Below, one piece after another: positions 10,584 through 63,499 of a stretch of DNA of 64,000 nucleotides. The notes below the pieces were generated by a model. That model was not told the DNA's origin. It saw only the letters and a program-made list of their open reading frames with translations, and did no database searches. This DNA comes from Balanoglossus misakiensis (taxonomy: Eukaryota; Animalia; Hemichordata), in the NCBI GenBank assembly GCA_040954595.2, contig CM082577.2, positions 13,523,903 through 13,587,902 on the forward strand. Reading direction: 5' to 3'. Positions within the stretch are counted from its first letter, which is position 1. Every line of letters begins with the position of its first letter. The position numbers and the translations under genes were made by a program.

Positions 10584-10642
<59 letters not shown>

Positions 10643-15000: not shown

Positions 15001-15130
15001 GTTATATATATACATAGACCGGGCTAACATTTTTGTCATCTGGGTGGTCATTTAAACGGTGTACTAATAATTCCTTTTATATACCAAATCTTTGATTTTA
15101 AGATGGGATCTTTTCTTTTCTTTTCTGTAG

Positions 15131-23527: not shown

Positions 23528-23535
23528 TTTATTGT

Positions 23536-37300: not shown

Positions 37301-40300
37301 TGTATTTTATCGCACCGCCAGTCAAACAATATAAGGGGCATATTAGCAAAGCCTACTCCACAGCAGGCTGAAATGGTATGTCTATTTGGTAACATGTCTT
37401 GACGAGGTGGCCATAAGCTTTATATAGCTAAACTGTAAACAATTTAGGCCGATTTTGTAGAACAAGGCAGCGTATCACTTATCTGAAATTTTTCAGTTTT
37501 TTTTAAAGAAAACTCCTTTCTCCCCCTCCCACTTTCACCCCCTTCTCCCTATCTTTCCTTCCCTCTAGGCTCCCCTCTCTCTATCTCTTTCTCTCTCTCC
37601 CTTCCTGTCTGTCTGTCTCTGAATGTATGTATAGGTATATTTGTGTAGTCAACTAACATTCCTGATATCGGCAGTTTCCAGTGTTGTTGCGCGTATCCAG
37701 TAGTTGTTCGTAAGTCCGTGCGTCTCAATATAGAAATCAAATCTCTCGCCAGAATTGATGATGATTGAATCAGAAACTTGGTTGCGAACTCGATTGCCAT
37801 CCGTTGCAACCACGTGTAACTTATGTTGGTCTATAGACACGCGGAATGCATAAATCATGGCCGCATTAATCAACCGAAAACGGTAAGTGCCCCTTCGTTT
37901 GACAGTAAATGTCTCCATAGGTATCAGGTAATTTTCGACGATGTCCCTTTTACCATTCGCGCCATACAGGTACGAAAGTCCTAGGTTTATGAAAAAAATA
38001 TATTGTCAATGACTTCATGACAACAAGAAATTAAGAACATTTTCATGGATATACAGTATGGAAAGGATTAATAGTGGGCTGTGGCTATGATTGGAAGGGT
38101 CACTGTATTTCAGGGAAAGATCGCCAAATCATGCAGAAGCATTTGGACGCTGGCTACTATTTTTCTTGCAAAGGGATGTGGATTAATATGACTGAAATGT
38201 TTCAACCCATACAAATTCCCAATTAATATAAGTTGTAACTCTAATATTGTTTGTCTTGGGTAGACCGTGTACAAGGATTATCATTTTGCAAAAAACATAC
38301 ACATGTATTTAAACAAAGCAAACTGAGAAATACAGGGGTACATGGTACATTTGCTCTTTGTATAGAGTCACTGTCGGTACATTTGCTCTTTGTATAGAGT
38401 CACTGTCTTTACATAAAGACAAAATTGCAATATTCCCGACCAAGTAGGCCAATTACTCCTTTTTAATAATTCCAAAATAGTTCTGACCCTGTTTCTCTTA
38501 AACCGCTTGTATGATTTCTGCAATAAAATCGGAGGTGAAGGCATGTTTCCTTTCAGATCACGGCAAAATTAGCAACATTGCCAAAATTTCTATTCAAAAT
38601 GGCTTCCTATTGGCCTTGTTGAATTGGACCGCAAGCTATGAAATATACGTGTAAACTACGGAATATTATCAGTAAACGAATGCGCAGGCCATGAGGTAAA
38701 CAAACATAGACAGTCTATCAGTTAAATCAACATGAGTTTACCTTTTCCATTTATCAGCCCAGAGATGAATGGCGAAACTCCGATTTCTGTGCCATCTGCC
38801 TGTCGCGTTTGGTAAAAGCACGCGTCTGTGTTGTTATAGCCCGGGTAGAATCTATCAAACATTATTATAGGCAACACCAATTTAATAACACGGTTCTGAA
38901 CTGTACCGAGATTATATCAGGTTATTTATCCCACAGGTTTCAAACCACAGAGGGCTGCAAACATAAAAGTTATAAATGGCAGAGTTCGGATATGCATCCC
39001 CCCCCCAATAAACAGTACTTGCTGAACAGTCTCTGTGCTTGTTTATTTTTCTGTGTTACCCCCACCTGTCGTATCAGTTGCTAATCCAAAATAAAAGCTA
39101 TCGCATTTCCCATTAAGCATGGAGTAAATTACCTTTGCATTTCCCAGAGAATTTGATTGTTGATATCAAGAGAAGAATTTCTCATCCAATCATGGAGAAT
39201 CATTATGAAGTCACCATCATAATCGACTTCTTCTTTCTCATCCTGTTGAAAGGAACATTAATATGTGTGTCATATGAGAATGTCTCTATAAGCTCGCGAA
39301 ATCTCTTGGAGTTCGGAAATGGGCCCACTATAAAGCTGTTTTGGAACCCCAGACGACCTAATATTTACTAACCTGTCTTCCTTTATCGTCCTCGTCTGGT
39401 AGGACAATCAAAGCACCGTATAGTCCATCTGTCCTTTGTGTGCCGAGATGGGAATGGTACCAATGGGATCCCGGAGGAGTGGCCAGGAATCTATTGCAAA
39501 AGCAACCACAGGAACAACGTCACTCTACCGAGTCGAGTCTCAAAGAGAAATATTTTAAACAACTTCGTTCCACCCTTGGGAAGCGGTCGTCGCGCCTCGT
39601 TGGTGTCGCGCCTCGTGGGTGTCCCCCCCCCCCCTTTGATGAGAATATGTCCTCCCATTCAAGCTCAAACCCCCACTGCAGTTGCCACGACCTACTACGG
39701 TCTTCAGTTGATGTCATGCCCAGTCTACGCTACGGTTGGCTGCTTCGATTATTCTAAAAAGATCTAATTTCAGGAGTTTGTGGATGAATTATAATGTTTA
39801 TTTACAAACCAATGCGGCGCGGCGACCGCTTCACTTAAAATGCCCCGTACCCTTTGTTAGTGTGCCAAGAAAGCAACGATTATTGTGAATTCCTCAATGC
39901 TCACATTTGATTGACCTAACGAACTTATACGCTGTCGCAAGAGCGCGCAGTTGACTAGATATGATAGCAGACAATCCGCCGAAATTGGCGACAAATGCCT
40001 GCATGGTTGCACTACAGATAGAGAGTTAGTCTGAGGTTGCACACCTTCTGCTGAAACCAGCAATCTAGAAATCTGTTGGTCAAGAATTTTTAGTTTCACT
40101 TTGAATTGTGTTCGACCAATTGACTGACCCATCCTGTCAATGAAAAAAATGCCCCAGGTTGCCTGGTTGTGCTGCGTCGACCAGAGGTATTTGGGTAAAC
40201 ATGCCGTGCGTTTTTGATGTCGAGGTTTCTGGCAGGCGTCCTAAATTACATGGGGTAGTAGAGAGACACCCCGAATTATACCTGTACGTGAAGGTTTCTC

Positions 40301-42581
40301 CCGGGTTGATAGGGCAATGCGACACGCCACCAACACCGTCCATCCACGGTGTGTTACGCTGTACCATTCCATGCCAGTGAATAGCAATGCCTTCCATCAT
40401 TAGATCATTTGTCACGTGTACCACAACCTTCAACAAAACGACCCGAAGTGATCTATCACGTTTCATCAAACCAGCAAAAGAATGTATTGTTTGTTTTAGA
40501 GGTATCAATCGATAATATTTGCTTGTATGCTTTGTCCACAGCCTGTCCATGATGAGCGTATGGGTCGATGAAGAGGACAGCGAGACAAAGGGATTAAGTT
40601 TATTAGGCACACATCGATTTTATGAAGATGTTTCGGTCAGTGCTATCGCGTCGGTACTACGCGATAGTGGAATGAGGTGTTCAATACCTGCGTGCCATTA
40701 TTGACAATGATCGGTGGTCCGGGCAGCTGGCCGTTGATAACGATAACTGATCTGTAGGATCCATCGGCCGTGATCACCTTTTCTTTCTCTTAAATAAAAA
40801 ACAAAACAAGAAGAATATTGTAAAGTGAAAACAAATTTAAAGCATATCTGACACTCGTTCACAAGCAGTATTGCATAGTACGTCCTAAATACACAGTAAT
40901 CAATTATAACTATTAGCGAAGTATCCGGAATGTTAGTTTTTTAGGTCGGGAGTTCTCCGTTTCTGGTTGCCCGACCGACCCTAGCCCTGGTATTTGACGT
41001 TGGCATGGAAACAAAAACAATTATTACTGTTGTACGCATTATTTAAACCAATTTATGGTCTATTCTGTATGTCTGAGAACACGTTATTGGCTCTAGGGCG
41101 GAAGAATAGGTTTAATCTTGAACATTTACTCTGTGGCCATGCTAAGGTCGACTCCTCCCATGCTAACCCCAACCACTCTGCTGTCAACAGCATCTATATG
41201 TAAAACTAGGGATTCAGGCGGTAAATGCAACTTATGTACACAGAACGAAATCATCTAAAACTAACAAAATTTACACATAGTGAAACTTTAAATTACCAGA
41301 TTTCTTTGTTGTTGTTGTTGACTTGGATCAATTAACTTGCAGAACTGAACACATGAAGGGGAATACATTCCTACAGTTTTCAGTTTGAAATGAGGAAATT
41401 AGGCCCTAAGGAGACCTAGTATACAATCATTTTTTTTACTGCGACGCCATTTGTGTGACAAAGTGCACTAGCATAAGTGCTATGTAAACATTGTCTTGTA
41501 TGCCTATTTTGTCGGCTAGACAAGATATGTACATTTTATATGCGACATTTTAGATTCATCTGTATTTGAACGGACCAGGATGTAACACTTACAAACAGGT
41601 ACTTGGGGCACACTGCTGTGATCGTTTCAAAAGATCTGTATTATACTCATTTCTTATCTCTTGGTATCCACGCTTCCGTGTCCACAGTAACATATAATTG
41701 TATTTTCATGTTAGCCCGTATACATCGAACTGCGCAAACACGGAACTTTACGGTACTTGTTTCAATTTTTTCTTCCTGGTTGACCACACAACTGGCTGGG
41801 GCGAAAAAAAACTACCAGTGCCTTGCCTCGTTCAGACCCTGACATCACAGCCTAATCTGATTACAATCAGCTGTAGACACATGAAGCGATTTTACCAACG
41901 CAAAGTTTAAGACACCGTCTTTATCTACAACTGATTTCTATTCAGATTGGTCAAAGCCGTGGCAGTGCTTGAAACGAGTATTCTCGCACTGTGGGTCAAT
42001 TGTTTTGGGAATTGGACCTTGACGTTTTTACATACTGGGGGTTTCTTGTGGAAATAAAATTTGGTTTAGCGTTTACTATCAAAGATAGATATCAAATAGT
42101 GTTTCACCTTGGGGTGGTTATATCAATTTGATTAATAAAAAATAACCTATTATCGTTTCCTTGTTCGTTAGCACGATATATTTGTATTGAGCAAGGCATT
42201 CAAACTAATTCATTTTCCATCCACTCGAACTCTACAGGCAAACATCTATCCCCCTATAGGAGGCAAGTTTAATGTTGTGTGTAGTCCCACAATGTGGTAA
42301 CTATTACCTGAATCAGACAGACGGTCTTGGTTGCCACACTTATTGACGTCCCGATTTCGTCTGTAATAGTCGCCCTGACGAGTGACTACAGGTAGGCCGG
42401 ACCCGGTTGTGGCGTTGTACGTCACCATGGTTTCCCTGTGCTCAACTTTCCATGTGAACTCGCAGATGGTGCCCTCCGCGTTGCAGTCACCGGTCGGTGT
42501 CAATTTCTGTGCAGCTGTCAAGGGCTGAAGTGCTAACGCGGCCGCAGTAAAAAGCAGAACACCTGCCATTAAGGAAGGCAT
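34313..42581 (-). CDS. Multicopper oxidase (laccase/ascorbate-oxidase-like) with signal peptide and C-terminal transmembrane helix, ~13 exons
   Basis: Signal [18 protein letters not shown] (42581). INGQLPGP (~40730), IHWHG (~40375), WYHSH (~39455), YRFRLINA (~37875), [10 protein letters not shown] (~35760), [27 protein letters not shown] (~35090). TM exon ~34313-34434 ([26 protein letters not shown]). Confidence 0.93.
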
Positions 42582-42794
42582 TTTGTTCTTCAGTGCGGAA
42601 GTGAAGTATGATATATACATGGAGTTGTGGGGCGGGTATGCGTACAAGAGGTAATGACATTTCCCACAATTCCGTTTTATAGACACATTCTGGACTCGTT
42701 AGTTCTCGACTTGCCCCAAGTCTATCATTGGGCTTCATTGTTTCATAATAAATACATTTGAGAAACTTTTTGTTCAAAGTCTGTCTATAGCATA

Positions 42795-43693: not shown

Positions 43694-46596
43694 ACACGTG
43701 AAGCCGTCTTACTGCTCCAAGATCTATACAAGGAAAATGCATTCAAGATGAAAGATCCGCGAATTAAAAACGAAGCCGTTTGGAAGGCAATATCTGACAA
43801 ACTTCGGTTATTCTGCTGACTCCTGCGAACTGAAAATACCTTAATCTGAAGGCAACGTTTACAGCAACATCTGACCACAACAATACCACTGGTAATGGCA
43901 GGAAAGGTTGCCCAACCCATGACCAGTTAAACTGGAACGGGTCAGTCAAGGAGACGTAAGCCCGACCCAAGTACCAAAATTTGCTGCGGGAGACAAACGG
44001 GACTATAAAATCAGGGCCACAGGGAGCAGATGTTCACCACACTGTAAAAAAAGCGGACGCGAGACACGTAATTACGCGTTCAAACTTTCGATGTTGGCGT
44101 TCAAATTTGAACACACAGTGTTCATAGTGTTAACGCCATGTAATTAAATAATGCACACACTGGTGTTCTTAATCTGCACAGAATGCGCTAACAACCCCTC
44201 TCCTTCAAGTGTTCAAAACCAATGCAAGATCGTAATTTTGAATGTGTGAAAAAATCAACAATTTTCGGTTGTTTTTAGTCTAATATGGTTTTGTCAAATT
44301 TGTAATTGCCTGGTTGTCCGGCAAGCATATACGAACTTGATATAAGGTGTAGCACAACAAATGAAACATTTCTCTGGTCCGCAGTTGCCAAAAGCATGTT
44401 TTTCCCGAAGAGAAGGTTCACACAATAGTTTTAGAGCTGTCTCGTTCATCATTCACCTGCAACAAGAGTGAATTTTCACGAAAATTAAGAGATTTTCAGA
44501 CACCGGTTGACTATGCAGAAGAGTGCAATAGGCTGTTGGAATCAGAAAGAACTCAAGATGGAGAGACAAGCTCATCACCTTGCAGTAATGGGTCAGTGTC
44601 AAGTGTTGAATTATCTGATGAGGATGACATAGAGGAAAATAGCCCGAGTGCAGATTAAAAAAGCCCGAGTGCAGAACCAAATACCTCAGTGTAAGTGTTG
44701 AGGCGCACAAATATATTGTCAGTTTCCAGTAACCAAACCTACCCTAGTACAAACTCCCTGACACAATAAACATTTTTTAACAACTTGAAATTCCTGTGAT
44801 AATCCAACTTGAGTGTTGCTTCTTTGTTATGGCAAACTTGTTCTGCACAGTATAATTCATTACATTTTCTAAGCATACTGGTACGTATCAAATCATAATG
44901 AGCCAGAATGTCTGTTGTGTTAAGAATTCTTAGCTCATCTATATGATTTTAAGCATTTTCTAGCAGCACACAGCAGATAAATATCTAGCAATGGACATGT
45001 CATGAAAGAAGCAAAATGGGTCATGTTTTTTTCCGGATTAAAAAGATGAATTCAGTTTATCTTGGAAATTGCAAAGTAATCTGGGGCATATTGCTTGATA
45101 AGTCTCTCATTAGACTCTAGTGACAATGAAAGAACCCAAACTGAGTTAAAGAATGATGCATCATGCCTGAGTGAGATATGTGAAATTACATTTCTTCCCT
45201 ACATATCTAAAATTTGCTTCTTCACAAAAAGAAGTATTTCTGTGTATTTTTGTTTTATCCATCTCTGAAACAAGGAAGGAAACAAAATCAAGGACGCCGA
45301 AACGACTATGTGATCAAGCCAGAGCACTGGCCATACCAACTTCAAGAAAGCGACAAAAAACACAGGAAAAGTTGCCCAAATTGACGAAGAAACAGACGCT
45401 ATGAAGAGAAGTGTCAGGAATTGTCATATTGGTATCAAGCTTACACACTAGAAGTGGCAGCTTGAGTCTTCCTTGAAAGATAGGTTTTTATCTGCTGGCA
45501 ACTAAATTCAACTAGAAAGGTACATATTGTAATACGTGCACGGCTAATGAAATATTGTGTGCATTTTAGCAATAAACTTGTAATAGTAACTTACAGTAAC
45601 ATTATCAATGGCAATAGTAACTTACAGTAACATTATCAATGCAGAACAAGATTTTATGTTTTTATGAGTAATCTTTATGAATATAATTCACAATGGTATT
45701 TGAAACTTCACCACTTTAGAGGTACATATCTTTTAAGCATTGGATCAATAGAAGTTGGAAAAAAGATATGTGAAGTCAAAGAAAATTGGGTGAAGCACCT
45801 GCAGGAATATATGGAGGAGTATTATAATGAAGCGTATCAGCCACTTGCTGTCGTTTTAAAATGAGAAAGCAAGCAAAACTTCAGAGACAGCAATGTAAGT
45901 GAGAAAAATGTATATTGCCGTAAGGGAAATGGCATATAATCACATCTTTCTTGCATTTATTATGATACGAAATACAAATTAGCTCTAACTTCTAAGGCTT
46001 ACAGGGAAAGTGGTTTAAATATTCATTTGCATGATCAGTCAGATTTATTTTGACAGGTTTATATGTTATGCTCTAGTGTTCTAAACATGACGCAAAGACA
46101 GAACGCATGTTCGCAGCGTTGCCCATTATAATGAGTTCGCTGAACACTGCGTCTCACGTGACTAAGCAAAAAGACGCGTCACAAACCCCATCTAATGCAG
46201 TCGCATCGATGACCCATATTAGGAGTTGCTTATTAGCATAAAAATTTACATATCGTTAATATGTAGAACGCGATCTGACCAATGACGTGCCCGGAAATAC
46301 GTCTTTTCCCGCTCTTTGTTATGAAAATCACGACCTTTTTTTTTCAAATGTAAATTTTGGGGTCAAATACGCTGTTTGGGGATATCCCGTCAATTAAAAA
46401 CAAGAAAGTACGAGTCAAACTTGCTTCCAGGTCAATAAGAAAAATTTTCACCAGTGCTTTTGTGAAATAATAAATTTTGATTTCGGCGCCTACACTAGTT
46501 TTGACGACAGCGACACTACAAGCCCCGCACAACCGAAAAAGCAGGCGAGCGAACACATCACATGCATCACCAAGTCATCGTGTCACAATACAGAGA

Positions 46597-46989
46597 ATGC
46601 CTTCACTTATCGTACACCAAGTACTGGCAGTGGGGATGCACCGCTATAAAGGTGCACTTACTGTCGGTGCTGGGTATCGCCTTCTGCGGGAGAAATCCAA
46701 CCCATACGACCAGAACGCCGTCGCAATCGTCGACAATGAAGAAGGCGCCCGCGAAATATACGGACATTTGAAGAGGGATGCCGCTCAAGTGCTCGCAAGA
46801 GTGATCGATGCGGCTCTATCTCCAAATTCCGTATATTTCCTCAAACCAAAAGAAAGTCCCTTCTTTCATTCTCGGCGATGCGGCGTCGTTCAGGTGTGTA
46901 ATGTTGGATTTCACCTGAAAGAAGGCGACCTACAAAGAGTGAAGGCGTTCGTGGAGAGCAAGGGCTTCAATGTGACGGTGATCGCCTGA
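46597..46989 (+). CDS. Stand-alone HIRAN-domain protein (130 aa)
   Basis: VGMHRY..YRLLREKSNPYDQNAVAIV...IYGHLKRDAAQVLARVID fits the HIRAN pattern L.REP.NPYD.NAI.V...GY/HL.R..A..LA; intronless, first ATG in this frame at 46597. Confidence 0.8.
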   Translation: MPSLIVHQVLAVGMHRYKGALTVGAGYRLLREKSNPYDQNAVAIVDNEEGAREIYGHLKRDAAQVLARVIDAALSPNSVYFLKPKESPFFHSRRCGVVQVCNVGFHLKEGDLQRVKAFVESKGFNVTVIA

Positions 46990-47576
46990 ATTACTGGTGA
47001 CACCGTCTACGCCTGGCGGTACACACCGCAACCAAACCAAACGGCCCTTTTCAGGGCCACACATCCTCCAGAAAGACATATACCGTTTGAAAAAAAATCA
47101 CTTGATGTTTTGATGTAATTATTTTATTATTTTTTAAATTCATTTTGTTGTTCTTTCAACTGTTTGTAATATCGCATACGAACGGGTTTCGCGTTTGTGG
47201 TTTGAGGTCATCAGCATTGCTCTTGGATACATGTACTTCGTCATGATGGAGTCGGGATTTTTTAAACGTTCTTTTTTATCAAGGTAGGGAACAATTAGTA
47301 TTTGTGTATGAATTACTTATTGATCTAGAAGGATCGGGGGAATCGGCCAGATAACCTGACAGTAAAACGGTGAAATCAAATGGAAATTCTGCAACTTGAA
47401 CCGCCGGTGATGTTTACTGTTTACAAATTGAATTCCCCTACACGGTCGAAGAGCTTTATATTGTGGTAGGTTTACAAACGATATTCCGGACATCTGTCAT
47501 GTACACATGGTGTTCTTGATGTTATACTGTTATATCTTCAGTCACCGAGTATAGTTCATTGTCTTAACTCATACTT

Positions 47577-47716
47577 CAGTGTTTCATTTAGGATGGCATC
47601 AACAGGGGGGATATGTCCCCCATTGCAAGAATATTGGTCCCCCCTTGACAAATTCCTAGGGGGTGCTATCATGTCAACAAGGGGGTGAATCCCCCCTCCC
47701 CCTAGATGAAGCACTG
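47577..47716. mobile_element. Small hAT-like MITE
   Basis: CAGTGTTTCATTTAGG ... CCTAGATGAAGCACTG imperfect TIRs; no TSD seen. Confidence 0.4.
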
Positions 47717-48905
47717 ATGTTTCTACTGTCAAGAAATTAAAATTACATTGTATGATGTTGCCACTTTCGTAATTTGTTTTATTGAAATGACTGTATTTTT
47801 GAAAATTTGTTTTAATTGTATAAATGCATAATTTTGTAAACTTCCAAATGTCAAAAAGCTAAAATAAGATGGCATGAAATTGAAATAAACGACTCCTCAC
47901 AACTGACCACTATTTGAGATTATCAGATTTTTATTACAAAGAACTAAAAAATTCATATAAATTTACATTCAATTCATGATTATTATAACAATGCACAAAA
48001 ATCTCTCTCAACCCCGAACCCACCCAATCCAACCCCATAACGATTAACAAATCAATTCCCATAATTTATAAATAATGATAAAAGAAAATAATACTGGAAT
48101 CCAATTTGGCGAAAGAAATGATTGCTGTATTTAAATAATATATGAAACCAAGTTTATTAAAAAAAATTTAAATGACACTCAATATTTTGCCCACAAATAA
48201 AAATTAATCGTAAAAGAATAAATAAATAAACCTAAAAGATAATAAAAATGTAATTAAAGCATAAAATAAAAGTAAACCATTGCACCTGAAGTGTTAGTTG
48301 AATAGGTTTCTAAATAGGAAAAAAAATTGTGTCATGATTTTTAAAAAAATAAAATTCGGAAATGATCATAATTTGAATTTTTATCACATGATTGACTGGA
48401 AATAATGTTGTAATGTTGGGTTATAATATCAAAAGTAATTAATTTGTTTCATTCCTATTTAGAAACCTTCAAATAAATTTACAATAAAAATATAATTAAA
48501 AAAATATATAAATTCTGTTGATTAGAAAATAGAAAATCAATAATAAAAATAATATTAACATTAAGCTCCTCAGCTGGTCAGCAAGTACAGTGGCAGTGAT
48601 TTTCAGTAACATCTGCTCCTCAAGAGGACTAAACATAATTGAAAAAAAGATACACACAAAAAAGAGATTAAATCATGGAAAGTAAAAAAAAAAGAATAGA
48701 GATACATGGTAAACTAATAGATAAACTGTGAAATAAGACCAAAAAAAGATTATAAATATATAAATCAATAAAATCTGTAGCCACTGTAATTAAATTGTGT
48801 ACTGTGTTGTGTATGTCTGTTTTTGTCAAGACTCCTGTGTTTTGTGCACAGTTAATATGATAGACAAGGGGAATGGGTGTTTGAATTTGAAATACACTGA
48901 TAATT

Positions 48906-51900
48906 TTACTGTTGCATTTCAAATTCAAACACTTCTGTTATAGCCCCTTGTAAATCATGCAAACTGTGCAGTAATTCCAGGAGCTTGGCTTTGTTTGTTG
49001 CCCGTCGTAGTTGTGTATGCAGTGATGTTCTGTCTGTCAACGGTAGTGTCTGAATTATGTCGTTGCATTCGTGTCGAAGTGTGGCATTTGTTTTATTTTC
49101 TTCTCTTTCACTTTCTTCTCTCTCGTTTTCTGTTACGAATAGTATTTTTTTTTGCCAGTGCCTGGATACTTACCTTGGCAGATGATACTTACCAGGGCAC
49201 GTCTTCTTTCTTCGGCATTGATGTTATAATTGCCAATGTGTCTATCCATAGCATCTCCTGAGATGGTAATAGGAGACCGACCAGCCTGATACTTGACATA
49301 AGATGTCTGTCTCAGTCGTCCCCTGAAACCCGTCAAGTCGTTAGAGTAGCCTGGGCGGCTACGTTCCAACGACTCGGGGTTTACAAGGCTAACGACTGAG
49401 AAGACTGTCTTTCTCAGACTGGCCAGGGCATCATGCCTGCTACAGATGACAACCCACTTACCCGAATCGGGCACTGGAGGAGCCCAGGCCTTGATGTTTT
49501 TGTTGTACTCCTCCAGGACGGCGTCCGCACCTTGATGGGCATCAGGCCTGCCAGATCGTGAAATGGCCTCGTACTTCTCCAGAGTTTGGAGAAGTATTGG
49601 TGGATACCGGGCACGGTCGGTCTCGTCATAGACGTCAATCAGTTGGTAAGTGGGGTGATTCCGACCGTGCCACAAGGTGCGAAGGAGACGCCGCCCAGCC
49701 CGTAGGTAAGTGGGTGAATTGAAGCGCGTGCCCTGTCGAAAGAGGAAAATTCCATGTAAATGTTGTAGAAGAATATTGTAAATGAAATTCATGTGAGAGT
49801 CTGTCACTGCTGCTGCATTCAACCAGCCAAGAAACAAACTGGTGGATGCATCAGCAGTGGGATTACTCACATGAAATTCATGTAGCAATTCGCTCCACAG
49901 ACAATCTCTGAATTTGCAAAGAAGGTCAAATGAAATGTGATGATCAGAACACTTCTTCACAAATTCTAGAGATCTGCCTGAGGAGAATCCCTGAGATAAA
50001 GCAAAGTCCCTGTAAATTACATCCCAATACATAGAAACAAATGATTTGACTGCATTGATTTCTTCATGTAAAAGACCCGTCCTTAAAACAACCCATGAAA
50101 ATATTCCCTCATGATCTTCTGATAAAATTTTACGGATAATTACATATGGCAAGCCATCACACCTGATTATAACCCATTCCCTATATGTACAATATAAATC
50201 TCCATTGCCCTCACCATGATTAAAATATTGTTTGATTTTTGCAAGTTTACCAATGTGATTAAGAATTTCTTTCACTGATTCGACACAATTAGGATTTACA
50301 AAAATAGGGGACATAACAGAAATATTTGCTTTATTTGCTTGTTTTGGGGGCTTTTTAACAATTCTGGTAGTTTGCTTACCCATGTGATCAACTTTTACTT
50401 CACCAACACACTCATGCAAGATGGTTCCCTTCTTCTTCTTTTTAATCTGTCTTCTGCCCGGTGAAATAAAAGTTGATGTCTTCTCTCTTTTCAGCTCCTT
50501 TCTATACTTACCCATCCAAATGCCACAACCTCGACACTTGGCAATTCTCGATTTGCCCTTCGTGTGGGTGAAACCACACTTAGGGCAAATGTCGATGCTG
50601 TCAGTATGTTGTTTTTGTTGTAAGTATGTGTCAATATAGTCAGTCTGTGGTGCATTATCTACATTGATAGTGGCTACAGAAGATAAAATTAAATTATCAA
50701 CATAAGAAGCAATGGACTCTTTGACAACTGAATCAAACTCATCATACTTGCTGTCCTCTGTATTGGAAACATCTGTCTCTGAAACCTTCTGCCACTGACT
50801 TGGCTTCAACCCAGAATCATATTGCAGTGATGATTCTGGGTCCAGCTGAGAAGCAATAATGTTAGTAAAAATATCCAAAGTAACTGAATTACCATTTCTG
50901 TTAATGTAATTTTTGGAAAGACGTTGTTCATTATCAAAAGAAAATTCAACTAACCCCTCAGGTGCATCTGGAAAATCAAAATTACCTTTAAAAAGAATAT
51001 TGTTAATAACATCATAACATGGGCCTGCTGTTACGTGGCCCATGAGATCAACTGCCAGGCGACTTCTGGTCAAACTAAATAAAATAACTTGAATTGCGGA
51101 AATAAAACTACTCACAAACTTAGGATTCCTGGCAGTATAAACAAGTTCAACGGCATGGGCAAGATATTGAGTGTTATTTTGGATTCCAGTATTTGGCATA
51201 CAGATCTCCTCAAGAAAGGAAACCAAGACAGGATTCCGTTCTGACAATAGATTATGTAAATCTATGTCTGATAAATTTTGAACGGAATACCTGTCTTGGT
51301 TTTGGCAGAGGAGATCTGCATGCCTGTAAATTTCTAAATTTTCTAATTTACCAATTTCCCTAATTGCTTCCACCCTCTTATCACTTGTGCTAAACCTCCC
51401 CCCGATTTCCCTTTTCAGCCTCTCAATTTCTTCCTCCAACTCTTTTATTTTCTCTTTGTCCTGAAAATAAAATAAAAATAAAATACACATTTTATTCAGA
51501 AATACCATTTTAATCATTTCAAGGCCCAAACTGACAGCATTTTCTTTGCATTGATTGTAGACCATTTCAATTACCTTGCTTCTGTCTTACTCTTCACCAG
51601 TCTTCTTTTGATTTTGTCGATGTTCACACTCCTGAAATAAATGCAAGATTTAAAGCATTAAATTATTATTCACTCATGTAAGTTAGACCAGAAGAACAAT
51701 TTAAAAAAAATCTACTTAAATTTGGCTATTGCAAGCTAACCAAAATTTCAAGGGTTTACAATACGTAGGAAACTTACGTAACAGTTCACCTCCATTGTAT
51801 GAGGCTGGCATGACCCAGCGGCCTCCGTGGCTAAACATGACTGTAAATACAAATAAAAATACAATAAAATTAATGCTTATGGTTTGTCTTTTTTTCCATA

Positions 51901-52975
51901 GTTGCTTGTTTTGTGTGTTTTGATGATGAATCAAGTAAATTAATAGGCACAAAAAACACACAATAAGAATAAACATGACTTACATCAAAATAAAATACTG
52001 GCCTGACTACCATGCATTTTAATCAGATATGTATCATACATACACACATAACTACCTGTGCATTGTTGTTGTCTTTGTGTGGCATATAAATCAGAATAAT
52101 TTCTTCACAATAAAAAAGATGTGTATACTGTGTTCCTGTGTGGTCCTCAAATATTTTGTCAGAGTTGAAAATACATGCAGCACAGTTTTTCATTTACCTT
52201 TGGTTCTTCAGGAATCGCTGCCGGTGTCCTCCAAGTCGCAGCGTGCGATTTTTTTTTCAAGAATGACTGAAAAATAATTTAGTGTCTACAGTTATTTTAT
52301 GGTTATTGAATTATTGACATTGTATATCCCACACCTGCGTTTATTGTAGCACCTGTCTGTTCCTTGTGAACTTTTATGTCAAAATCTTTCAAAACTTGAA
52401 TAATTGTTGATAAACACAACAATAGTTCATGCTGGTAATTATTATTCAAATAGTTTTACAGAAGGTTGTCATTTGATCACACTACTCAGTTCCGTTTTTT
52501 CTTTTTCTACTTTTTTGTTAAATTCTTATTTTTTGCACAAGGAGATATGTTCCTGCATTAATTCTATAAAATGCATAACTTCATGGGTAAATTCTGCAAA
52601 ATAAACAAATACGCTACGTATATAAAACGTGAATCAATAGCATTGACCGATAGTTTTTTTGTGCAGGTAACGTCTTCAGAATAACAAAAAAGTTACAAAA
52701 GAGTGACTTACCATTTGTTTGAGGCAGTCTGCACAGACGGATCCCCGTGTTCGAAATCCAGCCATATATTTTTTTGCATAGGCTGGCAATTTGACGTATT
52801 GGAACAACGGGGCCGCTAGACTGCCCCATTCGTCATGTCGAGGACATCGGCACTTTGGGACGTAACGTCCTGTTTGTTTCTCCATCTTTTCTGATTTGTG
52901 ATGTCGTCTGTCGCTACGTCTTGTCGCGCGAGCACCGTCAGCTTTTATCGCTAGCTCGCGCTCGGGCACTACCAT
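48906..52975 (-). CDS. Putative DDE transposase, Academ/DUF6589-like, spliced; one homopolymer frameshift near the C-terminus
   Basis: Exon 1 52975-52712 (Cys/His cluster, ATG|GTAAGT donor), several small exons at 52.4-51.57 kb, large exon from ~51460. Motifs FSFDNEQ, CPKC..CRGC, PIFVNPN, IIRCDGLPY, RTGLLHEEIN, SDHH, QGADAVLEEYNKNIK. The frame continues after the T9 run (49145-49153) to a stop at 48906. Confidence 0.75.
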
Positions 52976-53454
52976 GTCGTCAAAACTAGTGTAGGCGCCG
53001 AAATCAAAATTTATTATTTCACAAAAGCACTGGTGAAAATTTTTCTTATTGACTCGGAAGCAAGTTTGACTCGTACTTTCTTGTTTTTAATTGACGGGAT
53101 ATCCCCAAACAGCGTATTTGACCCCAAAATTTACATTTGAAAAGAAAGGGTCATGATTTTCATAACAAAGGGCGGGGAAATGGGTGAGAGGCGCGGCTTT
53201 CCGGGCACGTCATTGGTCAGATCGCGTTCTACATATTAACGATATGTAAATTTTTATGCTAATAAGCAACTCCTAATATGGGTCATCGATGCGACTGTAA
53301 TGAGCTAAGTGTTCATGGGTAATCCAGAAAGTTCTGCAGGGCATGCGCACATCAGACATAATTCGCGCGCCTTTTTTGTCAGACGACATTTTGTTGCTGG
53401 GATTTTTCTGGATTGCTGTCGCTAAATCGTAAGTATTGTCTTGAAGTTGGCAAA

Positions 53455-55893
53455 ATGGCATTAAATATTGGCACGATAGAGGAACCTATATTTAACTGTA
53501 GTTTGTGTACGTACTCGAGTGTTACATTTTCATCTTTCAAGAGGCACTTTGTACGTTTTCATAAAAACGACCCTAATTTTTTCTGTAGCTTGTTGTATTG
53601 ATTCTTGTGGTCACACAACTCATCGATGGACAAATTATAGGGTTCATGTTCATAGAAAACATAGACATGTAAACAGTGAGGTTGTTGATGACATTGTTGA
53701 CATTGAAACAGATGAAGATATTGTGCACCCATTTGTAAACGAGACAAGTGTAAACCATTACAACGCCATGTTTACTCTGAGTTTAGAATCAAAGCACAAT
53801 GTTTCACAAGCTGGCATTGATAATGTTGTGTCAACGACAAACAGTTTAGTTCAGAGTCATATGGATATATACAGGAAACGTGTGGTCGACAAATTGGAAA
53901 GTATTGGTATAGATCCACACATCATTGATGACATTGATATTGATACGGGGTTAGAATTATTTTATACGGACACAAGAAGAAAGACGTTCTATAAAAAGAA
54001 GCTAGAAACGCTAGTTGAGCCCAAGGCTGTAACAATTGGTAAAAAGTTTGTCACTAAGGATGGTATGGTACACGAAATGCCGACGTTGGGATATATTGTT
54101 CCTTTTAGTAAATGTTTACAACAGTTGTTAATGTTGCCTGAAGTATGGGAACATGTACAGCATCCTCATGTGTCATCTGATGACTCTTTCATGAATGACA
54201 TCTGTGACAGAGACTTTGTAAGAAATCATCCTCTATTTCTGAATGACAATCGATCACTTCAGATTGTTCTGAATTGTGATGATTTGGAAATTGTTAACCC
54301 AGTGGGCAGTTAAAAAGCACAAACTGACGGTTTTCTATTTCAGTTTGGCAAATATTCCCCCCCGAGTACAGATCTAAACTTCATGCAATTCAACTTCTGG
54401 CAGTATGTAAATCAAAAGATATCAGAAATGCTGATTCAGAAAGAAAGTTGCTCTCTGATTTTATAGACACAATGATTGAGATGGGAAATGACGGCCTAGA
54501 AATGGACCTACATGGTGAAAAACATGTCATGGTTTCTGCAGATACTTTGGCAGCAAATTGGCTAGGGAAATTTAAGGAGGGGGTTTCATTTGCCCTGAAA
54601 AATTGCAGAAGATGTGAAGTGGAGGCTGCAAACCTGAAGCATGTGTTTGATGAAAGGCAAGTTGTGTTAAGAAATAGAGAGACACACATGGAAAGATGTA
54701 ATGACCTTTCGGAAATGAGTAAAAAGGCGAGGATATACTGGAGTAAGTTGTGGGGAGTAAATGGTTCTAGTGAACTTTTGAAGATAAGGCAGTTTGATTT
54801 GCTTTCTGGCCTTGTTCAAGATCCAATGCATATTCTGTTGGAAGGAGTTGTCCAACATGAGCTGTCCCTTGCTCTCATTAGATTTATATATGTGCAAAGA
54901 CTGTTCACAATTAGTTGGTTGAATACAGCAGTTAGAGGATTTCCATATTCATATTTGCATATTCGATCAAAACCAGAGTCAATAGAGAAGAAACACATTG
55001 ATGGCTGTGGAACAATCAAGCAGAGTGCCTCAGCTATGCTCACCTTAGTGCATACTCTTCCTATCATTATTGGGCATCGAATACCCGTTGGTGACATTTA
55101 TTGGCAAAATATGTTGCGTCTGATACAAATTGTACTGTTTTGTACATCATCATATTGTACAAGAGAAACAGCAATGTATTTGAAAAATCTTATTGCTGAG
55201 TATCTGTACAATTTTAAGTCTTTGTATTCCAAAGCATCATTCATCCCTAAAATGCATTATATGGTGCACCTTCCTTCCCAAATGTTGATGTATGGACCAC
55301 TTCGACACCATTGGTGCATGAGATTTGAAGGCAAAAATGGTTATTTTGCAAATAAGAGGTATAAGAACTTCAGAAATATTCCACTGACATTAGCAACTCG
55401 CCATCAAATATACATGGCATACATGCAGGCTGGTTATGATGGTGGACGGTCAGGTTCGTTTTTGTATGGAGGTGACACAGTGGGTCCTGGTGTTGAAGTT
55501 AGTTTTAGGGAAGTGTATCCAGAGTTGCTCCATCCATTCTCTCAGATGACAATGATTGATGTTGATAGAGTGTATCAAACTTCACATGTCTCAATTCACG
55601 GTAATGATTACTATAGGGGTTGTGCTCTGGTAATTGATTATTGTGATGATATACCAGTATTTTGTATATTACTTGATGTAGTTGTGCTGGATCATGTGAA
55701 ATATTTCATCCTTGAAGAAGTTGAAGCAGAATTTAATGGGCATATTTTAGCCTATGCAGTCAGCTCAGTAGACAGGAAGAAGATAGTCAGACATTCAGAA
55801 TTAAAATTTAAGTGGCCCCTTAGTGTTTACACATACCAGGGTTCAGATGTTGTCATGAATACTAACAGTCACACATTCATAAACCCATTTTAA
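53455..55893 (+). pseudogene. EnSpm/CACTA-type transposase with two N-terminal C2H2 fingers, frameshifted
   Basis: CSLC..HFVRFH and CCIDSC..HVHRKH; DDLEIVNPVGS..HKL..FYF..NIPPEYRS; ADTLAA..CRRC; DPMHILLEG; PKMHYMVH..GPLRHHWCMRFEGKN. Breaks at ~53580 and ~54311-54345. Confidence 0.88.
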
Positions 55894-56466: not shown

Positions 56467-57107
56467 CACGTATGTTCAATACGCTGGATAATGTCAACTG
56501 AGTTCTACACATGCTCAGAAAAAATAAGCATAATTCTTGGGTCATGACCTAGATAGATGACGTATTGTGTGTAAATACAAAGGAACGGCCCATAGAAACC
56601 GTCCCGCCCCTTCATGTTTCCCCGGACTTTCTGCCAATAAATTTGTACCATTAAATGTCAATAATCTGTCAAACTATCCATATATGTCTATATTTTTCGC
56701 ATAATTAGCTGTATGGGTGGTTCCAAATCCAAAACGCGCGAAATTTTGACTTTGCGGTCGTCGAGCCTAGTCCGTGTCAGACAGACGCTCAGGCTGGGTG
56801 ACGACATCTGTTTCACAGGTTACGTAAAAAATAATCGTATTTTAAACAATTTTCTTGAGTTTTACTAGACATTTGGTTTTCAACAAACGTTTCTTCATCA
56901 ATTACATTTTTATTTTATGAATTAGTTCTCTGAGGCTAATTTTATTTTCATTGCTCTCCCGATAAAAACATTTTTTTTGCGATCGTAGGAGACGCCCGTT
57001 GCTAGGGACGCCATTTCATTTTTCGCTGTCAGTGATCGCATTTTGTTGTTTGATAGGGTACTTTCGCTTTATTTTGGGGGTTCGATTTTAGGTTGTGATA
57101 GAAAATA

Positions 57108-60100
57108 ATGATGTTTGGTTTAGAATTCCATAGATTTTGTTTGAGTAAATTGTGTAGAATTTGTGGGGGGAGAGCCCAAAGTTCATTGAGTTCATTACAA
57201 GGAAAATCGCCCAAGCAATGTTCTGTTTATGTCAACGAAATATCAGTTTTTGGGGTTGATATTTCGAATGATGAAACAGATGTACATCCCTCAAACTTGT
57301 GTTACCTATGTTACAAAAAATATGTAACAATGCAAATTTTTATGGTACCAGTGATCAGTGGGTGGGCCATCCTAGGGTTGGGTCCTGTAGTATATGTGAG
57401 ATGTTTACAAAACAAAGTAAGGGTGGGAGACCAAAAAAAAATAAAAGGGGAAGGCCACCAACTTATAAGAAAGGGGAGGGGGAATATACTATCAATTCTG
57501 GGGAGGGGTCAATTTTGACAAATGAGGGGTTGGAATATCTAACAACACAAGCCAGGGCTTCACAGACATTTCATTGTCCAGAAAACTTCAATCCAATGCT
57601 AACTGAAAATGATGTTAAGTGTAGTGTGTGTTTGTCTTTGTTCAATTGTCCATTGGAAAGTCCTTGTGAACATGTCTGATGTAGTGAGTGTCTAATCAAG
57701 GTATTCAAAACTGAAAATATGTCATGTATTCGTTGTCCTTGTTGTAGTCAGTCGGTCTCATGTTTTTCTGTTCGTCCAGCTAAACGTTATTTTCTTAATA
57801 TTTTGTGTTCTCTTCCAATGGAATGTCTTAATTGTAAACAAACTGTTGTCCTTGATTCTGTGTCGCAGCATGTCTGTCCCCAAAGACCAAAGCCTGTCCC
57901 CAATGTCACAAATACTGAAAGTACAATTACCGCCAATATTTTACAAAGGCCACCAGACTTGCCACTCACTCCTGCATTGGAAAAGGTGGCAACTCATCTT
58001 CTTAAAACAAAACTTCACCAGTCAACTGATGGTAAGACTGCTGTTTACAAAACTGGCGGACCGGTGAGTTTCACTTTCAATATCATAATCATAATTGCGT
58101 GTATGGCATGTTTACATTAACCCTTTCAATTCAAAATGAAACTGGAACATTTGTTTGATTTCAATAAAATGTAAAATTCTAAATTTGTGAGCTGCCAGTA
58201 CTCAAACAACGAAGCATCAAGATAAGAAATAGTAATTTTATTGTCTTTAATGATTTTCAAGAATCTTGTTGTGATGCACACTCCACAACCAAGAAAATCA
58301 TCAGAGCAGGCAACAAGGACTACCATCAGACAAAGGTCCAGGTATCTGGAAGAAGAAAGGGACATAATTAGTAAGGGCAGTACAAACCAGCAGCACAGAG
58401 ATGAGATACAAGTGGCATCAAAGCAACAAAGAATAGATCAAATATTTGACAAAATACCAAGAACAAGAGTGAGTCATGAGGAGATGCTCTCATTGAAAGC
58501 GGATAGGGATCTCATGGAATTCCAACAGAAAACTGAAAAGGTAGGTTGATAGCTATGTCACAAGTTATTGCTAATCAAATGTCACAATTTCATGCATACA
58601 GCTGCTTATAGTAATACATATAAAAATTATAATGATTGTCTTACAAGTCTTACATTCTTTTTATTTTATATCAAACTCAGATGGTTCAACCAATGGGGTG
58701 TAAAAACAGCTGGAGAAGGCAAGATTAGACAAGTAAAGGAAGACATCGTCGGAGAAAACATTCTTGCTGAAAATCTTCCTTTTAGGTTTACAGATGAGAA
58801 TGGACACAAACAGATGAAGCTGGCACCATGGATATGTGTGGATGACTTACCCTTGAGGGTCATCAAACAATTGGAAGAAAATGAGAAGTAAGTTTGAAAC
58901 AATATAATTTCTTTTTCTTAGACTGACCATGAATTTATCTATGACAGAAATGAAAATTTGGCATCACTCGCTAAATATACAAACAATGTGTGAGGTATTG
59001 ACTTGTTAGTATTAAGTAATCTGCCATTCCGCCACAATGGTTGTTGTATCAGAATGAGGCTGGTCACATCCTGACAATTTTTCATTGATTTTAATATTTA
59101 AACACTATAAAAATCTGCCAGGGGTGGGACTGCTACATTTTGACACTGGTGAGGTTGATTGGCAAACAGGACATTGACTCATGCATAATACTTACCTTTC
59201 TATCTACGCTAAAAAAATATGAAGACATGGGGTCCATAGAGTCCTGGAAAATCCTGGAAAGTCCTTGAATTTGATAGTGTTCCTGGAAGGATGCAATTTA
59301 CCCCAGAAATACCTGGAAAATAATCAATAAATAACAATGATTATTCATTGTGTTTATACAGATAATAGTATATGTAGGTCGTGTTAACTATATGATCTTA
59401 CCGGTCAACACTTCTAAAAAATCAAGATGTTTGTTTAAATACTCCTGGAAAACTAGTTGGAAACTCCTGAAATGTTATTCGATACCAGATCTAAGAACCT
59501 GGTGATGAGTAATTTAATTATGACATGTTCAATACTGAATGGTTTCCTGGTTTATTTTGTAGACTGAACAACCTGACATGGCATCACAACAAAATCCCAG
59601 CTAAAGAAATCTGGCTGAAAATCGGTGGTGACAAGGGAGGAGGAAGTTTTAAAGGCATGTTTCAATTGGCTAATGTGAATCGTCCAAACAATAAAAACAA
59701 CACAGTCGTCTTCTGTCTCTATGAAAGTGGGGACTGCTATTCGAATTTGTCCACAGCTATTGCAAGGTTCAAGGAGCAAATCAATCAACTGAAATCATTA
59801 ACCTGGAAGTAAGTTTATTTCTTAACATCAAACAAGTTTTGTGTAGAACTTCAATTATTTAAAGATATGTTATCAATACAATTTTGGAGTACATTGTAGT
59901 ATGAGACAAAACACATATTTCTCACTAATGATGTTTTCTTTTATTTTGATTGGAATAGAGACAAAGCATTCCGAGTATTTGCTTTTGGCGACTACGAATA
60001 TCTTTGTAGAATGTATGGTCTCAGTGGTCCTAGTGGAAGGCATTTCTGCCTATGGTGCCTTGCCACACAAGAGGATGCCCAGACTGCAAGGCACCACAGG

Positions 60101-61922
60101 CAGATACCTCTAAGGACCCTGGCCCAATTGGAACAAGACCATGACAAGTTCAACACCCTGGGTAATGGCAAGTTAGCTAATGCAAAGAAGTACAATAATG
60201 TCATACACAATGCCATCTTTGACATTGAAATATCACAGGTAATCACAATTACTGACTTCTAATTAATTTTCTCTTGTCCCTATCCAGTCGATACTGATAT
60301 CTGTGGTTTTAATTTGACAATAATATTCACCAACGATTTAACCACTGTCTCTGTGCTTCCCTATATCAAAAGCAAGGATGATAAATTATACTATGAATTT
60401 TACTGTTACAGGTGTGTGTACCGAGTCTTCATCTTGATCTGGGAATTTACCTGAGGTTTTATAACCTGATGGAGGCAGAAATAAATGCATTAGACAGGAA
60501 AATCGGGGTATACCTCGCTGAGTGCCATGCTGACACCAATGGGTACACCCCTGAGTTCCAACAATATGTACTAGCTATGGAAAAAGTTGCTGAAAAGCAA
60601 GAAGATTTACAGCAACTAAAGCTTCAGACTCAGAGTGACAATCTACAAAAAGAAATAGAACTACTGGTAAGAAATCATTATATGTACATGTATTGGCATG
60701 GTATCTGTACGTAACTCATCCGAATATATACTGATGCCAGTGATTGTACCTAACAAATGAAATTCTGCTGAGAAAATGAACTTGTAAATCATACAAATTT
60801 AATCCCTTTTTTATTATAGGAGAAGGCAATCAAGGACATGTTGGAGAACACCACATTGAAAGTCACAGCTGGCATACTAGCCCAAAAGCTCGACAGTGTA
60901 CTCCAACAGATTGGCGTTCATAGACAGGCTTACCATGGAATGTCCTTTGTGGGAAACCATGTTCACAAGTGTTTGCAAGTAAGTTTCTTAGTGATAACAT
61001 GATCTTACCTTGTAGAGTGAATGATGACAGACTGGACAGCTAGTTACCCTTTTCCAAGGCACCATAATATTAAAGTATAATAACAATCTGGTATTTGAGA
61101 ATGAGAATGAGAATATACACATTAATGTATGTACATGGTAATGGAAATATAATATTATATTATTGATTATATGCTGACTTAAGTTTTGGGCAATTATATC
61201 TTCTGAAATGATACTAAATAAACATATTATCTATCTACCTAGGATACCAATATCAACAAGTTGACTGATTCTATTCTGTGTGAAGTAGAAACAGTTTGTC
61301 CCAGTTTGGCTGCAGAAGCCCGTGCTGTATGTTTCAAATTTAACAGGCTATTCAAGTTACTTGCCAGGTGCCACAGTGGTTACAGCAAAGCTGAGAGTAT
61401 GGAAGCTGCTGAGATTGATGAATTAGGTAGGTAAAGTACAAATCAACACTTACCTTATTACCACATCCAAACTGGACCCCAGTTCCGAGAGAGTGTGACG
61501 TAGAACAGGGGGTATATGGATTTTTGATCTGTCCTGTCCTATGTCACACACTATGTCACTAATTTCTATGTAATGTATTTGTTCACCTTACAGAAACAAA
61601 TATTGACAGCTTGATGGCATATTACAGAGAATATTTTCCCAATGCAAGGATTTCCCCCAAACTACATATTTTGGAGGACCACACCACACAATTTATAAGA
61701 TCTTGGAGATTTGGATGCGGCTTCCATGGAGAACAAGGTGGCGAGAGTGTGCATGCCGACATGAATAATATAACATCAAATATCAGAGGACTCAAGGACC
61801 CTTTACAAATCGCCAAATCCATGCTGAAAGAGCACTGGGTACAGGTATCACCAACAACACTCCAACACAAACCACCAGTAAAAAAGAGAAAGTCTAGCGC
61901 ATCTATGACTAGTGTTACATAG
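57108..61922 (+). pseudogene. RAG1L: RAG1-like transposase, 9 exons, three lesions in the N-terminal part, catalytic-core exons open
   Basis: Exons 57108-58063, 58262-58540, 58681-58887, 59563-59808, 59959-60238, 60412-60667, 60820-60978, 61243-61426, 61594-61922. CND (LCRICG..DVHPSNLCYLC..WVGH..CSIC), RING (CSVC..CEHV*CSEC..CPCC), ZFA (CLNC..HVC). Core KIGGD(59630), FGD(59990)YEYLCRMYGLSGPSGRHFCLWC, LHLDLG, FVGN, PKLHILEDH, EQGGE(61743)S. Frameshifts at ~57320 and ~58505, stop at 57677-57679. Confidence 0.87.
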
Positions 61923-62276: not shown

Positions 62277-63499
62277 TGGACTCAGGACTCCGTGAATATC
62301 TGCAAAGCAAAAGGAAGTATTAAAATAGTATGTAATATAGTGTGTAATATACTGTAGTGTGTGAAAGGAATATTAAACAAATTGTGATACCGTACCACAT
62401 ATGTGATAAACTGTACATTTGTAGTTTGTCTTTCTTTAACTTTGTTTAGCTTTTTGTATTACCTGTTAAATTAAAATATTACACAAGGTTGCACAGTTAA
62501 AAGTTCATGTGTTTGCTTTTAATTTTTACAACTGTCAATTAACCTACCTTAGTACCATCAGATACACAAGATCTAAATAAATGACTGCATCCATCAACAG
62601 CATGGAATATTGAGATACATCTACATGTATGATTAGTGATTACACCATCATGAACATTTGAAAAAAAATGTGTTCTGAATGATAAAAAAAACAATAATTC
62701 GTTCAAGTCTAAAAATAAACAGTAGAAATGTAGAAATACAGTTTTACTCGACCCTTCACTGTACTGGTTTACGATTGAACGGGCAATTACATCGTTTGCC
62801 AAAACGTTTACGTTTGTTGTGTTGATCAAACAATCGAAGGTCAAAATCACTTCCGGTTTATGCGTTAACGATCAGCCATTAAGCATGTTGCGTGATGAAC
62901 GTAAACATTGTGACCCGTAGTACTTTTCTGGGGCTTTTCCTCCATTGCGACTTCATTTAATAACATCTATTTTTATCCCTTGTACATTTTAACTCCCCCA
63001 AAAGACCAGACATAAGATCTGACATTGTATTTGACGTTCAAACCTGTACTTTGATGGAATGTCCTCCGTCTGCAAAAAATTAGCCGCACATGTTGTCTGG
63101 TCCAGTAGTAGCGACAGCTTACGTACTTTTAAATTTGATACCATTCTCATCGGGAAAAACTCAAGAAAATTGTATAATCTATGAATGAATTATCGATTTT
63201 CGTAAAATTAAAAAAAAATACCGTTGCCGTGTTTTCGGCGGTAAAAGACCAAATAAAACGGTTTAATCTTCCGGTTTTCGCTGTTAAGATTCCTCGAGAC
63301 GTGATCGGATCTAATTATTAATTCATATAACCCTAACCCCGAGAGAAACGTGAGTTTTTATTGGCTAAAATGAAGGGGGTCACCGTTGCTAACGTTCGTT
63401 GCTAGCCTAATTAGCATATGATCTCAGGGAAATTCTTGTTCCGTCATACGCATGTGCACTACTCAGTTGACGCATAGAACATACGTGCGACCTAACTAC

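Follow-up and report, generated by a model that had tools for sequence, protein, structure and literature searches.

A hemichordate terminal inverted repeat element that pairs a stand-alone HIRAN gene with a predicted DDE transposase

The partner of the AcademX transposase is an XPG nuclease, and Academ elements carry the terminal signature TAG...CTA. Their target-site duplications (TSDs) measure 3-4 bp in AcademX and 9-10 bp in AcademH as given in PMC10045372, in agreement with the lengths stated in a preliminary description of the locus reported here. The same account places P, hAT, MuDR, Kolobok and Dada in a group marked by C/DxxH between the second Asp (D) and the Glu (E) (PMC10045372). 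HLTF's HIRAN domain is described as binding the 3ʹ-OH at single-stranded DNA (ssDNA) ends (PMC11237066), with a role for N90 and N91 in the 3ʹ-end pocket (PMC11237066, PMC4666394), and the isolated domain is reported to be a dominant negative that blocks both HLTF-driven eviction of Cas9 from breaks and end resection (PMC11237066). Here we describe an element in a 64,000-nucleotide stretch of the hemichordate Balanoglossus misakiensis (assembly GCA_040954595.2, contig CM082577.2, positions 13,523,903 to 13,587,902 of the forward strand; hereafter the window). With slightly better than even confidence, we propose that this 7.1-kb element, which has terminal inverted repeats (TIRs) and a 5-bp TSD, combines a predicted DDE transposase distantly related to Academ/DUF6589 proteins with a HIRAN protein that caps free 3ʹ-OH ssDNA ends.

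The precise insertion outlined in the preliminary description was recovered in full on re-measurement, including its long TIRs, its duplicated TAATG, its convergent gene pair and its termini, which read CAG...CTG (coordinates in Table 1). The TIRs are 93.8% identical, with a net indel of 11 bp and zero mismatches across the outer 100 bp; because they are nearly identical, they suggest that the insertion of the 7.1-kb element is young. When flanks of 2-12 bp were compared, the 5-bp TAATG was the sole match in this one copy, and a 5-base flank match with the ends fixed has a chance probability of 0.0013. The HIRAN gene is read on the plus strand and converges with the transposase gene, which runs from 52885 to 48906 on the minus strand, and no further open reading frame (ORF) longer than 105 residues lies between them. 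The start codons are placed near-symmetrically: that of HIRAN lies 88 bp inward of the left TIR, and that of the transposase 90 bp inward of the right one. This symmetry would be in keeping with two genes that form a designed unit under TIR control. The window ORF list, and a search of the three ORFs in question against Pfam, revealed HIRAN and the transposase only, with no nuclease or helicase.

The smaller of the two genes encodes a true HIRAN domain, a claim of the preliminary description that is upheld by a Pfam score above the family cut-off (Table 1), by a sequence match to the HIRAN domain of HLTF (E 2e-5), and by an HLTF-like predicted fold. The predicted model has a predicted local distance difference test (pLDDT) value of 92, and Foldseek matches it to 6kcs with an E-value of 3.9e-7 and a template modelling (TM) score of 0.73. 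A profile search retrieved 20 relatives among 1654 candidates, four of which are named as Mytilus, and the five nearest relatives share 51-70% identity over proteins of 130-179 residues. In trees of 39 sequences, 22 subfamily HIRANs separate from the 17 others (FastTree 0.986; ultrafast bootstrap (UFBoot) 100, as read from the consensus tree, the re-rooted output with shifted labels having given 54). The window HIRAN falls into a separate six-member subclade (UFBoot 100), apart from a subclade linked to pogo transposases. Host HLTF/Rad5 sequences were not part of the trees, and neither were P0198, a fragment of 80 residues, and a further six HIRAN loci.

Conservation of the 3ʹ-end pocket was compared by HLTF numbering, with presumed positions and roles for residues other than N90/N91. 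The equivalents of N91 and D94 (N35 and D38) are invariant in all 22 subfamily members, and the K113 position is Arg or Lys in every one of them (Arg in the window copy). The window HIRAN thus keeps a basic residue at this position, together with the equivalents of N91, Y93, D94 and H110. The H110 position is varied across the subfamily (H, Y, S or N, with His in 6 of 22), and C101 is present in 20 of the 22.

A genomic neighbour is visible for four of the 22 subfamily HIRANs (the window, L007, P0199 and P0205). In all four cases this neighbour is a transposase, and in three of them it is of the pogo type. In a Mytilus protein (P0205; VDI43002.1), a DDE_1 piece scoring 27.1 bits against a cut-off of 22 is joined to HIRAN, and P0199 has an arrangement of DDE_1 and HIRAN that resembles it. 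In the metagenomic locus L007, HIRAN lies downstream of an ORF that matches the P0205 and P0199 pieces (E 4e-20 and 8e-22), although by itself this ORF gives no Pfam hit. Because the same HIRAN clade adjoins pogo-type transposases, HIRAN is likely a transposon helper common to more than one superfamily. It is ruled out as a marker specific to this lineage, and the earlier suggestion that HIRAN is special to this Academ-like lineage falls with the pogo-linked members of the clade.

Broader searches returned few additional subfamily members. Among the metagenome matches listed (25 of 64 parts), at least 18 of 599 were confirmed as HIRAN, and L007 is the only subfamily member, scoring 114.8 bits where the others reach no more than 45.5. 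A HIRAN scan of viral contigs gave five loci, none in the subfamily, and a phage search gave no match. None of 200 transposase-side proteins carries a HIRAN fusion, longer HIRAN fusions not having been searched for directly, and an inspection of accession adjacency in Ptychodera found no named HIRAN.

The main transposase exon has 954 relatives at E<=0.001 and 400 at 1e-10. Those with names include proteins of Ptychodera flava, Branchiostoma, Crassostrea, Mytilus, Sycon and Gigaspora, and the closest full-length relative is a 975-residue Ptychodera protein (P0178; XP_070550918.1). The preliminary description had predicted an RNase H/DDE transposase using the D of FDN, the D of CDG and the E of LEEYN, and this assignment is supported both by conservation in an alignment of 40 proteins (Table 1), which also contains a C4 zinc ribbon, and by fold searches. 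Placement of the three residues in strands and a helix is taken from the model of P0178 (pLDDT 79). When this model was searched with VIA-align, the P-element transposase ranked top in both searches, with Z 10.0 in the wide search and Z 10.3 in the other (356 aligned residues, root-mean-square deviation (rmsd) 6.3), followed by integrases, Tn5, Hermes (8.0), ISCth4 (7.3) and RAG (5.9). Foldseek returned nothing for the transposase model at E<=0.001. An RNase H fold, a D/D/E triad, TIRs and a TSD, which together characterize a DDE cut-and-paste element, are thus all present, with catalytic roles assigned from conservation and from the secondary structure of the P0178 model.

The Academ/DUF6589-like label proposed earlier is only partly sustained. 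A weak link to DUF6589 (PF20231) stands, in that 26 of 40 relatives match it at E<=0.01, with two of 12 above the Pfam cut-off; the window protein itself scores 15 bits, below the cut-off of 27. Atlas clusters give DUF6589 at 0.88-0.89, which serves as a lead only. We presume that DUF6589 is equivalent to Academ. Membership in the Academ RNase H profile was accordingly gauged by this proxy, the published Academ profile being the one that PMC5751038 assigns to its supplement. A second domain, RAG1_imp_bd (PF12560), occurs on the same transposase core in nine of the 40 aligned relatives (P0159, P0006, P0008 and six more), and is absent from P0178 and from the scanned window ORFs. In a tree that took in 39 of 115 long proteins, namely those with all three motifs, P0178 groups with a Gigaspora protein, apart from the carriers of RAG1_imp_bd (support 0.997).

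Transposase scans of viral contigs gave no match, and a scan of prokaryote genomes gave 61 pattern matches and one locus (L006). Related transposases of eukaryote type (L006 and L027-L029) occur in the records of three prokaryote genomes (G001, G252 and G371), where they most likely represent stray host DNA and not transfer. Four kilobases downstream of the transposase in L006, on the same strand, is an ORF of 170 residues (9685-10197, plus strand) with a stretch that resembles a MADS box by eye and no Pfam hit.

If the two genes act together, the mirror-image TIRs would drive the expression of both. The transposase would bind the TIRs, cut the element out and, with a stagger of 5 bases, join it to the target DNA; excision might leave 3ʹ overhangs, as is the case for P and mariner/pogo elements. 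The HIRAN protein would then bind these 3ʹ ends on the DNA, which makes contact with the transposase unnecessary, and would exclude host 3ʹ-end readers of the HLTF/Rad5 type, along with resection, until integration or sister-templated repair is complete. Because HIRAN is shared by unrelated transposases, action on DNA is favoured over protein contact. The dominant-negative effect of isolated HIRAN on HLTF, as reported in PMC11237066, provides a precedent for the shielding of a cleaved complex by a bare HIRAN domain.

Several observations weigh against this capping function. The 3ʹ overhangs are taken from other superfamilies and not from this element, and the fold score that points to the P element is modest (Z 10 at rmsd 6). 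The N90 position of HLTF is variable in the subfamily and is Ser in the window HIRAN, and the Y72 position is Arg in the window copy versus His in 21 of 22 members; because of these two substitutions, the pocket of this copy is possibly damaged. Furthermore, 18 of the 22 subfamily HIRANs come without genomic context, and none of 23 HIRAN loci contains a transposase of the element's type. Subfamily HIRANs were found in none of 380 genomes at E<=1e-15, three of which hold a related transposase, and two of the three contigs with such a transposase start within the gene. L006, a distant relative on a 12.4-kb contig that continues for 6.7 kb downstream, has neither HIRAN nor a TIR/TSD pair. A single copy of the element has been seen, which is also the only one within the window, such that both HIRAN linkage and TSD length inside the family depend on the window itself. 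As these relatives are either remote or truncated, they neither establish nor exclude such linkage for the family to which the window element belongs.

Among other explanations, the one that survives best is that HIRAN is a chance passenger, or what remains of a nested pogo element, and has no part in the element's movement. We judge this unlikely. It draws on the pogo transposases that adjoin the same HIRAN clade, on the lack of HIRAN in L006, on the single known copy and on the fact that the element has already acquired at least one small insert. However, the HIRAN ORF is intact and is symmetric to the transposase start (88 versus 90 bp), neither a pogo remnant nor an inner pair of TIRs appears near it in the repeat and ORF lists, and its subclade of six (UFBoot 100) is distinct from the pogo-linked subclade. 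We consider it quite improbable that HIRAN steers insertion to replication forks via the 3ʹ ends of nascent strands, the second function raised in the preliminary description. Such a role would accord with the proposal, put forward in PMC11237066 and PMC4666394, that HLTF's HIRAN domain locates the nascent 3ʹ end at forks, yet it would require a tether to the transpososome, whereas the protein is a bare domain of 130 residues whose clade pairs with unrelated transposases. Still harder to credit is a structural subunit that binds the transposase in the manner of RAG2. The tail-to-tail gene pair and 5-bp TSD recall RAG transposons as described in PMC8355894, and the RAG1 N-terminal domain occurs in nine of 40 aligned relatives, but by sequence the core falls outside RAG/Transib, its fold is nearer to P, and the HIRAN clade is common to pogo elements. 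A pocket retooled for a function other than 3ʹ-end binding, for example as a His/Cys metal site formed by the H16 equivalent and C101, would be in keeping with the prevalence of His at the Y72 position and of Cys at C101 and with the varied H110 position, but is highly improbable given that all 22 members retain the equivalents of N91, D94 and K/R113 and that the fold matches DNA-bound HLTF HIRAN.

The capping of 3ʹ ends remains our preferred function for HIRAN, and the state of the transposase gene in this copy can be considered separately. The predicted exons 2-4 total 63 codons, compared with a linker of 62 residues in P0178. The main exon is 76.6% identical to P0178 over 760 residues, with the last 82 residues continuing at 74.4% in a second frame, and a one-base frameshift relative to this orthologue lies at a run of nine T residues (49145-49153). 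Unless this frameshift and the in-frame TAA in predicted exon 4 (Table 1) are assembly errors, this transposase copy is probably inactive. The transposase stop codon is the centre of an imperfect hairpin, one arm of which is the coding end of the gene and the other the 3ʹ untranslated region (UTR). None of 200 shuffles is equally stable, and the hairpin could feed small-RNA silencing or terminate the transcript. A small insert between the two genes, which resembles a miniature inverted-repeat transposable element (MITE), has no second copy in the window and no TSD was seen for it. An Rfam search gave no matches.

Table 1. Coordinates of the element and its features in the window
Feature	Position	Strand	Details
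Whole TIR element	46198..53297	.	7100 bp, CAG...CTG ends
Left TSD, TAATG	46193..46197	+	Flank comparison
Right TSD, TAATG	53298..53302	+	Flank comparison
Left TIR, 312 bp	46198..46509	+	CCAAT (46279) and TGACGT (46283); possible promoter
Right TIR, 323 bp	52975..53297	-	CCAAT/TGACGT motifs mirrored
Stand-alone HIRAN gene, 130 residues, single exon	46597..46989	+	Pfam PF08797, 45.1 bits (cut-off 24.7), E 8.8e-12
MITE-like insert, ~140 bp (CAGTG...CACTG)	47578..47717	.	Between HIRAN and transposase genes
Imperfect hairpin, 170 nt, centred on transposase stop codon	48822..48992	-	-70.8 kcal/mol, z -10.8
Main transposase exon	48906..51460	-	RNase H/DDE core, C4 zinc ribbon
Candidate catalytic Glu (LEEYN)	49511..49513	-	E in 37/37 non-gap rows (40 aligned); in helix
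GxxH motif	50066..50077	-	Presumed equivalent of the C/DxxH signature by position; G 39/40, D 1/40, H 40/40
Candidate catalytic Asp 2 (CDG)	50156..50158	-	D in 40/40; at strand end
Candidate catalytic Asp 1 (FDN)	50933..50935	-	D in 38/38 non-gap rows (40 aligned); in strand
Predicted transposase exon 4, 19 codons	51575..51631	-	In-frame TAA at 51589-51587; in-frame skipping possible
Predicted transposase exon 3, 21 codons	51778..51840	-	Splice consensus
Predicted transposase exon 2, 23 codons	52198..52266	-	From splice consensus plus an open phase 0 only
Transposase exon 1, 58 codons, Cys/His zinc-knuckle-like	52712..52885	-	69% identity to P0178 residues 9-63

Other mobile elements populate the surrounding window. 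Directly right of the element, a transposase-like gene extends over two ORFs (53480-55893, plus strand) with a weak DUF4218 match (E 0.028); judged by its motifs, we take it to be of the CMC/EnSpm type. The HIRAN element ends ~180 bp upstream of this gene, and it may have inserted within the element to which the gene belongs. A decayed gene with Cys clusters resembling RAG1-N and RING (57102-61922, plus strand) is presumably Chapaev-like by its motifs, and may be bounded by an inverted pair of 29 bp (56835-56863 and 63156-63184). Two long and apparently intact ORFs of 394 and 949 residues (22343-26349, plus strand) presumably belong to a LINE-type retrotransposon. Host exons at 5112-15483 and 40137-42698 contain what we take, again by motif, to be receptor-kinase, Ig-like and multicopper-oxidase-like pieces.

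Among the papers listed in literature searches, nothing on HIRAN in eukaryotic DNA transposons was found. Nothing on a pairing with HIRAN was found in the DUF6589/PF20231 literature, and the main text of PMC3627910 contains no mention of HIRAN. We nevertheless see a real, if minor, chance that the HIRAN-transposase architecture is already present in Repbase or Dfam, or in the papers that define AcademH. In its broadest form, which we offer tentatively and with clearly less than even confidence, our proposal is that the element represents an unnamed Academ-related lineage of hemichordates, amphioxus, bivalves, sponges and mycorrhizal fungi, with a 5-bp TSD and a swappable partner slot. This slot would be filled by a transposon-specialised HIRAN clade, separately recruited by unrelated DDE superfamilies as a 3ʹ-end cap against host HLTF/Rad5, and thus as a general end-handling module. 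Because TSD length in Academ tracks the partner (3-4 bp with the nuclease, 9-10 bp with the helicase), 5 bp together with a non-catalytic 3ʹ-end binder would be a third state, and hence a simple system for asking what transposon partners do. Should the HIRAN clade that also adjoins pogo elements prove a genuine helper, DNA transposons of eukaryotes would carry their own means of controlling host repair at transposition breaks, accessible through one protein of 130 residues, and this might improve transposon vectors. In addition, the presence of the RAG1 N-terminal domain in the wider transposase family bears on the origin of that part of RAG1.

Compared with known systems, the element resembles Academ as portrayed for AcademX and AcademH in PMC10045372 and PMC10799480, where a TIR element likewise joins a DDE transposase to a second DNA-processing function. 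It differs in its TSD, which is 5 bp and not 3-4 or 9-10 bp, and in its partner, a non-catalytic HIRAN where Academ has a nuclease or helicase. The element thus works like an Academ-type two-function element yet departs from AcademX and AcademH in both TSD and partner, and membership in either is ruled out by the 5-bp TSD of the one copy together with the HIRAN partner. Transib, ProtoRAG and RAG1-RAG2 share the 5-bp TSD and the tail-to-tail gene pair as described in PMC8355894. However, their termini are CAC where those of the element are CAG, the RAG fold scores Z 5.9 versus 10.3 for P, and the partner is not RAG2-like. An alignment profile of the transposase family gave 32 matches to PDB sequences at E<=10, none of them RAG1 or Transib. 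The 5-bp TSD, called typical of Transib/RAG in the preliminary description, is thus no pointer to that group, given the sequence profile and the fold ranking, and membership is ruled out by the CAG ends and the lack of a RAG1-core sequence match.

The P, hAT and MuDR-IS256 transposases provide the best fold matches (P, Hermes and ISCth4, respectively) and a conserved His after the second Asp, and MuDR has long TIRs with two convergent genes, as does the element. The GxxH of the element differs from the C/DxxH of that group, and neither a sequence match to P/hAT/MuDR structures nor a THAP domain or any further Pfam domain typical of them was found. Judged by its modelled fold, the transposase would nonetheless work like the C/DxxH group. 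N-RAG-TP of Aplysia, known here by its description in PMC8355894, is marked by a domain resembling the RAG1 N terminus. Nine of the 40 relatives have PF12560 on the transposase core, and N-RAG-TP may therefore belong to the wider family or lie next to it. P0178 and the transposase of the window differ in having another N-terminal zinc knuckle and no PF12560.

On the HIRAN side, the domains of HLTF/Rad5 and the stand-alone HIRANs of bacteria and phages are similar in fold (TM 0.73) and in the equivalents of N91, Y93, D94, H110 and K/R113. The HIRAN of the element differs from that of HLTF/Rad5 in being stand-alone and transposon-borne, in belonging to a separate clade of 130-residue proteins, and in having Ser for N90 and Arg for Y72. 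Finally, the pogo (DDE_1) transposases with a downstream HIRAN (P0205, P0199 and L007) place the same HIRAN clade beside a DDE transposase. Their transposase is unrelated to that of the element, and their genes are arranged in tandem whereas those of the element converge.

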